From contig OX597829.1 in NCBI GenBank assembly GCA_951406725.2, positions 17,856,001 to 17,920,000 of the forward strand: DNA of 64,000 nt, in the 5' to 3' direction. Every line of letters begins with the position of its first letter. The first letter of the stretch is position 1. This document shows positions 8,757 to 24,683 of this stretch, piece after piece. The stretch is from Octopus vulgaris (Eukaryota). The position numbers and the translations under genes are program-made. Under the pieces are notes generated by a model. It saw only the letters and a program-made list of their open reading frames with translations. It was not told the origin of the DNA and made no database searches.

Positions 8757-8800
8757 TTTCAGTACCGGTTTCGGTCATTTTGAGACCTTTTCAACTGTAA
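8757..8800 (-). ncRNA. Minimal type-I hammerhead ribozyme, U3-A8 core variant
   Basis: Minus strand: UUACAG-UUGAAAA-GGUC UCAAAAU GACC-GAAA-CCG-GUA-CUGAAA; palindromic stem III ACCGGU; element ends in (TA)n at ~8706. Confidence 0.7.
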
Positions 8801-9112
8801 CGATTAAATAATTAAATTTAGAAAAATTAGAAGAAAAGATTTTTTAAAGGAATATTTCTATAGTAGTGTTCAGATATAAGTGGCATTCTGCCTTTCTCTG
8901 ACTCCCTTGTTTGCACTTGTGTGTTCGAGGTCGTTATATAAATATATATATATATATATATATATATATATATATATATATATGTATGTATGTATGTATG
9001 TATGTATATATGTATGTATATATGTATATATATATATATATTATAGATAGATAGAAAGATAGACAGAGGCCGACAGACAGATAGATAGATGTATGTATAT
9101 ATATCACATATA

Positions 9113-9695
9113 TTATTATTATTATTATTATTATTATTATTATTATTATTATTATTATTATTATTATTATTATTATTATTATTATTATTATTATTATTAT
9201 GATTATTATTATTATTATTTTAATTCATATTCATTGTCCAGAAATCTTTCGTCATACATCTGTGACCTCCTCTAAGAATGGAGTAAGTGGAGCAAGATCA
9301 AACACGAAAACGAAAAGTGTCGCTGAAGAGGTCACAGATGTGTGATGAAACAATTTAGCGCCTTCAGACTATCATCTCTATCGGCCCCATGAAAGAGGGT
9401 TTGAGAGGCAAACATTTGTAGAAATATTATCGCTGTTGTTGTTGTTGTTCTTGTTGTTTGTAGTAGTAGTAGTAGTAGTAGTAGTAGTAGTAGTAGTAGT
9501 AGTAGTAGTAGTAGTAGTAGTAGTAGTAGCAACAGCAGCAGCAGCAGTAGTAGTAGTAGTAGTAGTAGTAGTAGTAGCAGCAGCAGCAGCAGCAGCAGCA
9601 GCAGCAGCAGCAGCAGCAGTAGTAGTAGTAGTAGTAGTAGTAGTAGTAGTAGTTGTTGTTGTTGTTGTTGTTGTTGTTGTTATTGTTGTTGTTGT
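9113..9695. repeat. (ATT)n tract and compound (AGT)n/(AGC)n/(GTT)n tract
   Basis: Direct reading: 9113-9218 and 9461-9695. Confidence 0.95.
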
Positions 9696-10563
9696 TCAAG
9701 TGTTTGAACTTTAGCCTGTACCAGAAACCAGACTTTTAGTAATAGAACCTTATTACGCGTGGGAAAGAAATAAATAAAAAAACCTCAGAGATTTCTTAAT
9801 AATGCCGGCAGATACTTGAAAGCATACTGAAATGGCGGTCTATATGGTTCACAGAGTGACATGGACATTCAATATCTTTTTCTTTTTTCCACTTTAGATA
9901 AAATAAATAACGCTTAATAATCTGGGGAATGTTTTTTGACGATGATATAGTTCTAAGTTGTCAATCAGTCTTTAAAAATTATTACTGGAGAGAACAAATA
10001 TCTTTAAGAGGTAGAAGCGTCTGTGAAAGAAGGAAATATTGCTTGCTGAAGTCCTACCGGAATTGTACTTAGACCGGCTGATTAAGGTTTCATGTTGATG
10101 TTGACTACTAAATATGCTTGATGTAAGGTGTCTGAATATAAATTTAAAACAAAATGTAAATAAAATGTAAATAGACGAAAGTAAAACATTTATTCTGGCA
10201 AATCACAAATGCGCAATTAAAGAAACAGACAAACACACAAACAGGCACACAACACACACACACATGCATATATGTACACACACACATATATATATATATA
10301 TATATATATATATATATATATATATATATATATATGGATAAATGTGTGTGCGCGTGTGTGTTTGTGTATGTGTGTGTAGATTCATATTCGCTACTCGATG
10401 TAAACGACATTGCTGACTACGATGAAACTTTTAGAATTTTGTTAAAATTAAATGAATAAACTTAGAACATTCTGTTGTGTCTGGGGAAAGGCATTCTCTT
10501 TCGGTGCCTTTTTAATTTAACACACTCACCGGTAAAATTTCAATTTATTTCTTTTTCATTTTA

Positions 10564-10600
10564 CTAAAATTTTTGATGCGTCTTGCAACCTTTTCAATAG
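10564..10600 (-). ncRNA. Degenerate hammerhead fold (U3-A8; G12 lost)
   Basis: Minus strand: CUA-UUGAAAA-G-GUUGC AAGAC GCAUC-AAAA-AU-UU-UAG; stems I and II present but GAAA reads AAAA. Confidence 0.45.
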
Positions 10601-10699
10601 AACAGTTTTCTATGAAATAATGCTTGCCTCTGATTTTCATTGTGATAGTTTTTGTGTCTAAGGTTGAAGTTCTGTAGTTTTCTAAGAAGTTTAATTATT

Positions 10700-21286: not shown

Positions 21287-21628
21287 AGGCGCATGGCTCA
21301 GTGGTTAGAGCGTAGAGCTTACGATTGTGAGGTTGTGAGTTCGATTCCCGGACCGGGCTGTGTGTTGAGCAACACGTTGCTCCAGTTAACTCAGCTTTAT
21401 TTCACGGTGCTCCAGTTCAGTCAGCTGTAGAAATGAGTTGCGACGTCACGAGTGCCAAGCTGTATCAGCCTTTGCCTTTCCCTTGGATAACATCAGAGGT
21501 GTGGAGAGGAGAGGCCGGTATGCATGGGTGACTGCTGGTCTTCCATAAACAACCTTGCCCTGACTTGTGCCTGGGAGGGTAACTTTCTAGGTGCAATCTC
21601 ATGGTCATTCATGACCAAAGGGGGTCTC
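21287..21628 (+). mobile_element. SINE family D, tRNA-derived
   Basis: A box TGGCTCAGTGG and B box GTTCGATTCC; GTTGCTCCAGTT..CTCAGCTGTAGAAATG body; diverged relatives on minus at ~26340-26520 and ~33985-34100. Confidence 0.8.
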
Positions 21629-23338
21629 CTTCTCCTACGAATGGTAACCATCTCGTCTCGTTTCCTTTTTCTTTGTTCTTTTAAGCAAATTCTTAAAGCA
21701 AAATTTATTTATGAGTAAGTTATCCAACGTATCCTTCCTATTTTAGCCTATCGGGCGGCTACATAATAGCTCTTCCATTTGTTCGTTGAATACTAAGAGA
21801 AATTAACATCAATATAAAAAAATATCGTAAAGAAAACGAAAGTAAAACACGATAAACAAAGGTGAGAAAATCAAGCTTCGAATAAGAGCACGAAAGAATA
21901 TTAAAAGAGAAATTAATGTGAAAATCTTCACAGAGAAAGAGAGAGAGAGAGAGAGAGAGAGAGAGAGAGAGAGAGCGGAGGAGAGAAAGTAAGAAGAATG
22001 AAAGTAAGGAAGAAAGAAAGAATGAAGGAATGAGAAAGATTGATGGAAATTCGTGAAATAGAAAAAGGTAGCGGCCATTACTCATTTACGTCGTTTAAGC
22101 ATTAGTTTGACATTTTGTTTATATTTAAGATAAACATCACAAAAATGGAACAAGTGAAACTAAAGAAACAAATATGAGGTAATTCGAGAGACATTGTTGA
22201 GGCGGTGTGGGGAGAGGGGGTTACCTTTCTTCTTTTTATTTCTCTTCGTTCTTCTTCATTGCCTTTTGTGTGAGCTGTTAATTTATTTTTTATTTTTTTA
22301 TTTTTTTTTTATTTTTTACCTCTATTTTATTTTTGTTTCGTTTTTTTTTTTACTTTCTTTTTGTTGTTATTTTGACTTAATGTAATGCTACATTTGAAAT
22401 AAGATCCCTTAAAGAATCTTTTCTTCTGATACTATATTGCCGACCCTGGGGGCAAGGTGTCGTGACAACGTAATCTTGTTACCTATCTTCTCCCACACCC
22501 ACTTCCTCCCGTCCCCAGTCCAGCCCAAAAGAAAATATTAACATTTGATGTTGTTTTATGAACGTATAGAATATCACTGTTGTTTTTTTGCCTGCGAAGG
22601 TGCTACCGTTCATTATCATACTGTAGCTTACGCGCACCTTAGACAACATGTGTCTGAATGTGTGTGTGTTTGTGTGTGTGTAGGTAGGTAGGTAGGTAGG
22701 TAGGTAGGTAGGTAGGTAGGTAGGTAGGTAGGCAGGTATGTATGTATACATATATATTTTACTCCCCAATCAAAAAAAAGCGAAGGCTTGATGGTCATAG
22801 CAGGCGTCTTAACCCGCTGTGCCACTGTGGTCCAACTTTCAAGTCTAAAATACTGAGATCAGATTACGCGGATTGACTCTCATCTTAAAACTACTAAACT
22901 AATTGGTGAGTCAAGCTTCAGTTTATATTGCCAAATGAATTTGTACCATTCTTGCACGTGATCTTCGCACACGAAGATACTGCCATAACATACATACATA
23001 CTTAGGTACATATACATATATACATATATAAATGCATACATATACATATATATATATATATATATATATATATAGAGAGAGAGAGAGAGAGAGAGAGAGA
23101 GATACATACATACATATATATATATATATATATGTGTGTGTTAGAAAATGTCTAAGATCCTTGGTACAGTTAGATATATTTGAAAAAAGAGAAATAATAA
23201 CTTCCCTGGTAGTTCCAATCAGTTTAACTTATATTATTAAAAAATTAAAAAATAATAAATTAAACTGATTGGTACTACAAAAGAATGAAAGAGACCGCGA
23301 TATTATGTAAATAGAGGAATTTATCTGTAAACATAATA

Positions 23339-23925
23339 TGTAACAGATATTCGGTAGCCATGATAAAACTCCGAGCTTCGGATGTCGGGACGGAAACCCA
23401 CGCCGCCATCTCTTTGGTTATCCGGCCATCGAAAGAATGCTATCAAAATGAGCGTTAAACAAAGGGAAATTACTGTGTGATTGACCGTTATTAAGACAAA
23501 AGAGCTATTTGAATGACCGCTAAGTGAAGGGAGGGAGTAAAAATGTTCATAGTATTCGCGTAAGCACGCATATCCACACCTACACAAGCGCGTCCGCACA
23601 CCAACGTACATGCGCCTATAAGTATATACTCATCCACTCTCACTTGAAACATACACATGATCACCCACACATTCGCATGTACATGGGCGTGGGGGCGCGC
23701 ATGCGTAGGAATGGATATGCGCGCTTACGCGAATACTATGAACATTTTTACTCCCTTCCCTCACTTAGCGGTCATTCTAATAGCTCTTTTGTCTTAATAA
23801 CGGTTAATAACGGTCATTTTCATAGCTTCTTTCCGATGGCCGGATAACTGAAAAGATGGAGGCGTGGTTTTTCGCCCGGCATCCGAAACTCGGAGTTTTA
23901 TAATGGCTACCGAATAATTGTCACG
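23339..23925. mobile_element. Fold-back / MITE-like element with ~250-bp inverted arms and ~59-bp spacer
   Basis: 23339-23614 is the reverse complement of 23674-23925; the peptide LREYYEHFYSLPSLSGHSNSSFVLITVN appears in ORFs on both strands; termini TGTAACA...TGTCACG. Confidence 0.85.
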
Positions 23926-24638
23926 TTATATATATATATATTATATATATATATACATACATACATACATACATACATATATATATATATATATATATAT
24001 ATATATATATATATATATATATATATATAAAGGATTCTGGAGAGAAAATGGCAGTCACCATGTTGGATTGGTTTAACCTGTAAGCACCACGTTTAGTTGG
24101 GTTAATATACTGGTTGCAGGCTGAAGTCATCCAGTGAGATATTTAGGCTGTGCGCACACAGAAAAATACACCTCGGACTATGTAAAATCCCAGGACATCG
24201 GAATTTTGGGGGAAAACAATTGGGGTCTATTTTGAGAACTGTTCCCCACTCGCGTGTGTTTCTGAACGAGTCGTCCATATTTGTTTCATTTTCTCCGTTT
24301 TGTGCGGTGGGACAGAAATCTGTAGTTACGCTGAAGAACAATACATGCGCGCAGTAGGAACATGTCTATACGCCAGCCGAAGAAATTATAAGATAAATAT
24401 TATAAGATAAATATATATATTTAATAATTTAATATAATTTTAATAATTCCTTCTGGAAACTATCTTTAACATGTTCTTGAGAATGATTATTTATGTAGTA
24501 ATCTTTTGTGCCCAATATTTTAAGGAACTTGTTAAACTTTTTTATATCCTTAACATGTCCTTGTTACCAAAAAGACTGTATATATGTAATGTAGCATTTT
24601 ATAACAACCAATAATTAACGCAACCAAACTTCTACATG

Positions 24639-24683
24639 TTACTTTTGACAATCTTTTTCCAAAGAGTGAAACCGGTAAAGTAA
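24639..24683 (+). ncRNA. Hammerhead fold, U3-A8 variant
   Basis: UUACUU-UUGACAA-UCUUU UUCC AAAGA GU-GAAA-CCG-GUA-AAGUAA; perfect 6-bp stem I, palindromic ACCGGU; base of stem II imperfect. Confidence 0.6.

Follow-up and report, generated by a model that had tools for sequence, protein, structure and literature searches.

Minimal hammerhead motifs with a U3-A8 core in a 64-kb window of Octopus vulgaris resemble those of Penelope-like elements

In the hammerhead ribozyme, the tertiary pair C3-G8 positions nucleotide 8 as a part of the active site, and U3-A8 substitutes for it. Hammerheads with a short stem III perform poorly alone. Here, 64,000 nucleotides (nt) of Octopus vulgaris DNA (assembly GCA_951406725.2, contig OX597829.1, positions 17,856,001 to 17,920,000), called the window below, were analyzed, and all coordinates are those of the window. 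The original prediction had reported three hammerheads with U3-A8 (sites 1 to 3), and its letters and positions for them are correct. The variant is genuine but already known. Two of the three flagged sites (sites 1 and 3) are credible, and one family has U3-A8 as its consensus. Together with site 4, which had been overlooked, the window contains three well-supported minimal hammerheads (sites 1, 3, and 4) and several weaker relics.

The original prediction was built on the Watson-Crick pair of positions 3 and 8 and on its capacity for compensation, both of which are established (PMC3088659, PMC3884650, PMC11167929). The pair forms in the active conformation (PMC3884650), and a number of natural hammerheads have U3-A8 as a covariant of C3-G8 (Perreault et al. 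2011, PMC3088659). The variants described there share U3-A8 with the window motifs, as well as the U10.1·U11.1 closure of stem II seen at site 3; the section of that paper covering variants names no natural G3-C8 and no minimal dimeric motifs. The Cercyon Penelope-like elements of Schistosoma mansoni (families Sm3 and Sm4) include ~1,300 mostly solo U3-A8 minimal hammerheads, collected with a dedicated descriptor (Cervera and de la Peña 2014, PMC4209133), and Fig. S3 of the same paper lists the UUGAAAA core in a Schistosoma Cercyon element. The novelty implied for U3-A8 is thus lost, as such a descriptor had already been run on a metazoan genome in 2014. The reported U3-A8 finding matters little because U3-A8 Penelope-like hammerheads have been in print since that year.

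Cercyon and the window sites are alike in the minimal type I layout, the palindromic 15.2-16.2 segment, and the U3-A8 core (PMC4209133), but there are differences. With CCGG, the palindrome of the window is two bases longer than that of Cercyon and corresponds to the variants named "small palindromic helix III". Unlike Cercyon, site 1 lacks an additional base behind A9, and it has A17, a possible partner of U3, whereas the two Schistosoma U3-A8 examples of Fig. S3 have G17 and U17. Cercyon families are Penelope-like elements, while no Penelope reading frame was found in the window. Another related system is the Poseidon element PAc of Anolis, whose hammerhead in the pseudo-long terminal repeat needs the protein of the element. 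In PAc, C3G or G8C abolishes cleavage, and the C3G/G8C double mutant is partly rescued (PMC11167929). PAc is naturally C3-G8 and its G3-C8 is laboratory-made, whereas site 4 carries G3-C8 in the genome.

Sites 1, 3, and 4 show the type I layout (U4 G5 A6 A9, G12 A13 A14, A15.1-U16.1, H17, and the three-way junction). Their short stems, unstable stem III, palindromic 15-16 segment, and U-rich 5' and AU-rich 3' flanks agree with the published consensus of the minimal, dimer-type hammerhead. The letters at positions 3 and 8 are compatible with a Watson-Crick pair, U-A at sites 1 to 3 and G-C at site 4, which is a statement on sequence compatibility only. The R-Y closing pair of stem II, G10.1-C11.1, is present at sites 1, 2, and 4 and is replaced by U·U at site 3. 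All descriptors for hammerheads were composed with the sites already in view, and the shuffle counts given below are therefore optimistic.

Site 1 is located at 8760-8797 on the minus strand, inside the flagged interval 8757-8800, with U3 at 8794, A8 at 8789, stem II at 8787-8773, GAAA at 8772-8769, the palindrome ACCGGU, and A17 at 8763. It reads CAG UUGAAAA GGUC-loop-GACC GAAA CCGG UA CUG on that strand. Stem I consists of 3 base pairs (bp; CAG/CUG), a mismatch, and 2 further bp, and stem II is GGUC/GACC. The predicted cut, after GUA, is between 8763 and 8762. Site 1 is the sole match in the window of a strict descriptor permitting C3-G8 or U3-A8, which had no match in 60 locally shuffled windows. 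It scored 12.5 in a ranking scan that ignored positions 3, 7, and 8 and was calibrated on 100 shuffles. In Rfam, it aligns end to end with Hammerhead_HH9 (RF02275, clan CL00010), although that family has a long stem I and tertiary contacts between loops that site 1 lacks; the match scores 22.9 bits (E 0.0011 for a search of 221 bases), far below the gathering score of 52. GAAACCGGTA, which contains the palindrome, is exactly present at 2368, 8763, and 24668, compared with a mean of 0.1 and a maximum of 1 in 60 shuffles. The sharing of the palindrome between two flagged motifs is thus true for sites 1 and 3, although the sequence occurs three times in the window and not twice.

Site 1 lies in a fragment of ~225 nt (8707-8931, minus strand) of a high-copy repeat, placed between two (TA)n tracts that are 238 nt apart. 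The family extends past 8931, and this copy is therefore 5'-truncated; other copies likewise abut TA repeats. At least half of 19 sampled words of 8707-8934 were found in 20 of the 24 listed sequencing runs, under three organism labels. Four of the 24 runs were aligned to the region at 80% likeness with a reporting threshold of 2% for variants, so that relatives less than 80% alike fall outside the alignment. The aligned contigs numbered 2400, 1046, 663, and 18, and the summed depth of the bin over the core was ~947,000, 719,000, 297,000, and 122. In the two runs of greatest depth, single long pieces were covered at ~30-70. These values suggest a family on the order of ten thousand copies, as a rough figure, because depth is no copy number.

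Neither U3 (8794) nor A8 (8789) has a listed variant (threshold 2 in 100) in any of the four runs, and the same is true for positions 12, 13, 14, 15.1, and 17. In the three deep runs, only 8773 and 8787 among the 40 positions of the motif (8758-8797) vary at 2% or more. The change C11.1 to U at 8773 reaches 8.2, 9.5, and 3.9%, and G10.1 to A at 8787 reaches 0.3, 4.2, and 1.3%, all unphased. The two positions are partners of one stem II pair, and the alternatives are of the G·U and A-U type. These data show that U3-A8 was present in the amplified master copy of the family; therefore it is not the decay of individual copies. As positions 3 and 8 are invariant, covariation inside the family is not shown by them. 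The contention that U3-A8 is compensatory and not random decay is supported for site 1. It is not supported for site 2, where G12 is missing and the motif is of a grade expected by chance. Independent variation of positions 3 and 8 across copies, the outcome that was to speak against compensation, is not listed in the site 1 family, but C3·A8 and U3·G8 do occur in other relics. A minor group of 4 contigs in one run (8763-8780) has an apparent G at position 17 beside the same palindrome, with low agreement (0.81); G17 matches one published U3-A8 example. The pattern scan for relatives of site 1 gave none in viral contigs. The eight matches in metagenome contigs, all of 46-70% GC and without stem I by eye, were dismissed as chance.

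Immediately before U3 of site 1, a pyrimidine-rich and AT-rich tract ending with TTACAG (8795-8830, minus strand) looks like a candidate 3' splice site. No spliced joint at this tract was seen in the contigs of the four runs aligned to site 1. The one run guessed to be RNA showed neither a splice joint nor an end of a molecule, a result that carries no information on expression. In the Drosophila Penelope, the intron ends at helix I (PMC4209133). The motifs of sites 1 and 5 both contain ATG in the region of stem II, with the frames MTETG and MIETG, and both have AG upstream; the start codon of PAc likewise overlaps its ribozyme (PMC11167929).

Site 3 (24639-24683, plus strand) has U3 at 24645, A8 at 24650, a 6-bp stem I, the palindrome ACCGGU, the core UUGACAA, and a 5-bp stem II closed by the U10.1·U11.1 mismatch (GAAACCGGUA). 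Its predicted cut is between 24677 and 24678. A descriptor of the grade of site 3, blind to positions 3 and 8, had no match in 100 shuffles. Site 3 is below the threshold of the ranking scan, and no hammerhead family was among its 5 Rfam matches (E<=10). Since the U10.1·U11.1 closure is found in natural hammerheads (PMC3088659), site 3 may be intact.

The best-formed minimal hammerhead of the window is site 4 (29376-29426, minus strand), with G3 at 29419, C8 at 29414, a 7-bp stem I, a 5-bp stem II, the palindrome AAUAUU, and U17. It sits in a piece of ~220 nt between (TA)n tracts. Its score in the ranking scan, 16.0, is the top of the window, and no score of 13 or more was seen in 100 shuffles. 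Its fold is also better than that of shuffled sequences (z -2.32). Two AAUAUU segments are computed to pair at only -0.2 kcal/mol. Site 4 had no hammerhead match in Rfam (E<=10), and the pattern scan found no relatives in viral contigs or in genome contigs. In the literature searched, no example of a natural metazoan G3-C8 hammerhead was found. As a candidate for such a natural G3-C8, site 4 is the part of the window most worth following. Upstream of site 4, there are a branch-point-like sequence and a pyrimidine-rich tract ending with AG at 29441, and G3 is the G of the second CAG. A short inverted repeat flanks the (TA)n tract at the 3' end of the piece (29160-29270).

Of the three reported hammerheads, site 2 (10564-10600, minus strand) is the one that does not stand with the others. 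Its core is UUGAAAA (U3 at 10597, A8 at 10592), but stem I has 3 bp, stem II has a mismatch, and AAAA is found where GAAA is expected, with A replacing the catalytic G12. G12 is critical for the hammerhead (PMC8495972), and site 2 would therefore be dead if it is real. The window has 3 motifs of its grade, including sites 1 and 4, while shuffled windows have 1.89 each on average. It is below the threshold of the ranking scan, and its 4 Rfam matches (E<=10) include no hammerhead. Site 2 appears to be either a dead relic or a chance match. The flanks of sites 1, 2, and 3 have no detectable homology to each other; thus, their assignment to separate elements is upheld.

Sites 2 and 4 share an extra G after A9, and they resemble each other in stem II, where U-A is exchanged for C-G, and in their downstream sequence. 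The downstream similarity has p 0.003, as one of 56 anchored comparisons. In the window-wide comparison it ranks second, with a score of 59.5, which is within the shuffled maxima (52.5-67.0). The pair may be a lead, not a result, for covariation from U3-A8 to G3-C8. A bolder proposal, which we consider doubtful at present, is that minimal hammerheads of the Penelope type have exchanged their 3-8 pair more than once in this lineage and that the pair still functions, with an amplified U3-A8 family and a related lineage having U3-A8 (site 2) and G3-C8 (site 4) with the matching stem II change. If so, site 4 would be a natural, family-level metazoan G3-C8, an exchange that has until now been demonstrated as a rescue mutant in the laboratory, and it could have been driven by the overlap of position 3 with the AG acceptor of an intron.

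It is likely, with a probability of roughly 0.65, that sites 1 and 3, and also 4, represent minimal type I hammerheads as found in the terminal repeats of Penelope-like elements, left as short 5'-truncated pieces. From their architecture, we infer a putative membership of the window motifs in this group. The arrangement is mixed, with 5' truncation at site 1 and one inverted pair (23363-23900), but no tandem pair. Solo truncated copies and inverted pairs are known for Penelope-like elements with hammerheads (PMC4209133). TA flanks are found at sites 1 and 4 (29376) and at a motif at 31594, and are absent at sites 2, 3, and 5; Naiad Penelope-like elements show a TA-microsatellite bias and Neptune a microsatellite bias (PMC8557442). 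If the parent element is transcribed as a tandem, two motifs would pair via the palindrome; the intermolecular duplex of two ACCGGU segments is computed at -8.3 kcal/mol, and closing A15.1-U16.1 inside a monomer at a cost of ~5 kcal/mol. The dimer would be cut slowly after GUA, probably aided by the protein of the element. The isolated genomic copies in the window would most likely be silent relics.

Several observations weigh against this interpretation. No match to the Penelope reverse transcriptase (RT) or to GIY-YIG was found by Pfam in 196 translated segments (150 of the 184 longest unmasked frames, the remaining 34, and 12 frames near the sites); the hammerhead-bearing pieces here are too short to hold a frame for RT plus GIY-YIG. 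Sites 1, 2, 3, and 5 fold no better than shuffled sequences (z -0.75, 0.36, 0.21, and -1.55, respectively). The flanks of site 1 vary at 2% or more in 14 of 188 positions, compared with 2 of 40 in the motif, and the motif is thus not measurably more conserved than its flanks. U16.1 is changed in the deepest contig of the single run guessed to be RNA. Minimal Penelope hammerheads are uncleaved as monomers and only weakly cleaved as dimers (PMC4209133). Stem I of site 1 has just 3 bp, and the minimum-energy fold pairs U3 with A17. This pairing is analogous to C3-G17, a known inhibitory trap in hammerheads (PMC3884650). The activity of site 1 may therefore be low or nil, and the family could serve as a natural test of U3-A17 as a ribozyme trap.

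These observations are partly shared with another explanation, in which the site 1 master had already lost useful cleavage. C3U and G8A transitions would have occurred in an AT-rich lineage, A17 would trap U3, and the motif would have been copied as a passenger many thousands of times, since retrotransposition needs no cut. The absence of excess conservation over the flanks and the U3-A17 pair of the minimum-energy fold favor it, as do reports that ribozyme mutants left insertion in vitro unaffected in a Poseidon element (PMC11167929) and that Naiads proliferate without canonical hammerheads (PMC8557442). However, the rest of the core is unaltered in the three deep runs, the variable positions leave stem II pairable, and the two changes together give precisely a Watson-Crick pair again. 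Moreover, a descriptor blind to positions 3 and 8 has a Watson-Crick 3-8 in all 3 of its matches, versus 27 of 80 in shuffles, while a looser one has it in 3 of 4. We regard this explanation as unlikely. Still less likely is a non-autonomous host, a derivative of a Penelope terminal repeat resembling a short interspersed element (SINE) or a retrozyme, whose ribozyme would process short or circular RNAs. The pieces are short (210-240 nt) with no coding match nearby, and retrozymes have been reported as Penelope derivatives (bioRxiv 10.64898/2026.07.22.740005). But no motif has tandem copies within the window, the architecture is minimal, in contrast to the canonical tandem-repeat motifs of retrozymes (PMC7229834), and the site 1 family continues past 8931 in the upstream direction. 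The combination that marks non-LTR retrozymes, short tandem repeats that carry a canonical type I hammerhead, was not found in the window.

It is possible, although not the expected outcome, that only site 1 represents a true U3-A8 family, and that sites 2 and 3 each decayed independently from C3-G8 to U3-A8, or that AT-rich DNA produced site 2 by chance. The frequency of site 2-grade motifs in shuffled windows is consistent with this. At site 3, C7 would place an ancestral G8 in a CpG, making G8A an easy transition, and the C3·A8 and U3·G8 mismatches of other relics indicate that single changes do accumulate by decay. On the other hand, site 3 is otherwise nearly intact, so that two changes exactly at positions 3 and 8 are improbable, and the downstream resemblance of site 2 to site 4, though not above the shuffled maxima window-wide, speaks against pure chance. 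That all three motifs are chance matches in AT-rich DNA is very improbable, and this is already contradicted for sites 1 and 3. The descriptors are post hoc, and the core heptamer TTGANAA alone is not enriched (63 observed and 64.9 expected in the window), but the descriptors of sites 1 and 3 matched none of their 60 and 100 shuffles, respectively, GAAACCGGTA is in excess, and site 1 matches HH9.

Under a relaxed descriptor, none of the window motifs has an intact CUGANGA core, and no site reaches the gathering threshold of the Rfam hammerhead clan CL00010. For these reasons, hammerhead counts in such genomes are probably too low. An Rfam search of the whole window listed no hammerhead among 150 of 469 matches, which were microsatellite-driven microRNA and similar families. 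A descriptor permitting one core change was uninformative, with 4 matches against 8.4 in shuffles.

Among the weaker relics, site 5 (2358-2401, minus strand) contains an exact GAAACCGGTA (2368-2377) and an 8-bp stem I with no recognizable core, which is considered to be deleted. Of all sequences in the window, it matches site 1 best, with a score of 75.0 that none of 12 shuffles reached. A short frame upstream of site 5 (2561-2698, minus strand) may resemble a C-terminal stretch of GIY-YIG, but this finds no support in databases; the 41-residue peptide upstream of site 5 had no match to Penelope RT or GIY-YIG. A motif with a C3·A8 mismatch is found at 23844-23900 on the plus strand (score 11.5; scores of at least 11 occur at 0.08 per shuffled window). 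Its inverted partner at ~23363-23421 on the minus strand has G8 and a broken core. The two belong to an inverted pair (23345-23540 and 23748-23920) with arms of ~170-195 nt, one of which ends at a TA tract. The motif at 31594-31630 (plus strand) has C3-G8 and A6U in a piece of ~210 nt between (TA)n tracts; on its score alone, 7.5, it is at chance level. Its decayed second copy at ~37392-37430 (minus strand) has U3·G8. The repeat copies bearing these two motifs are at 31520-31727 (plus) and ~37310-37470 (minus). The idea of a window without C3-G8 or single-mismatch cores was ruled out by these relics.

The window is AT-rich, with 27% simple repeats and dispersed SINE-like repeats, and repeat detection in it is dominated by microsatellites. 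A weak Pfam match to TB2/DP1 (37275-37553) was dismissed as a chance frame of hydrophobic character. An abundant SINE-like repeat is present in both orientations, with internal tandem units of ~185-215 nt (10745-11283, 17168-17982, 51816-52280, 57775-58355, and others). A stop-free frame of 396 residues at 13298-14485 on the minus strand contains a zf-RVT domain (E 1.9e-8) and is probably a fragment of a long interspersed element. A fragment of a mariner-type transposase (Transposase_1, E 3.6e-7) is located at 63649-63936 on the plus strand.

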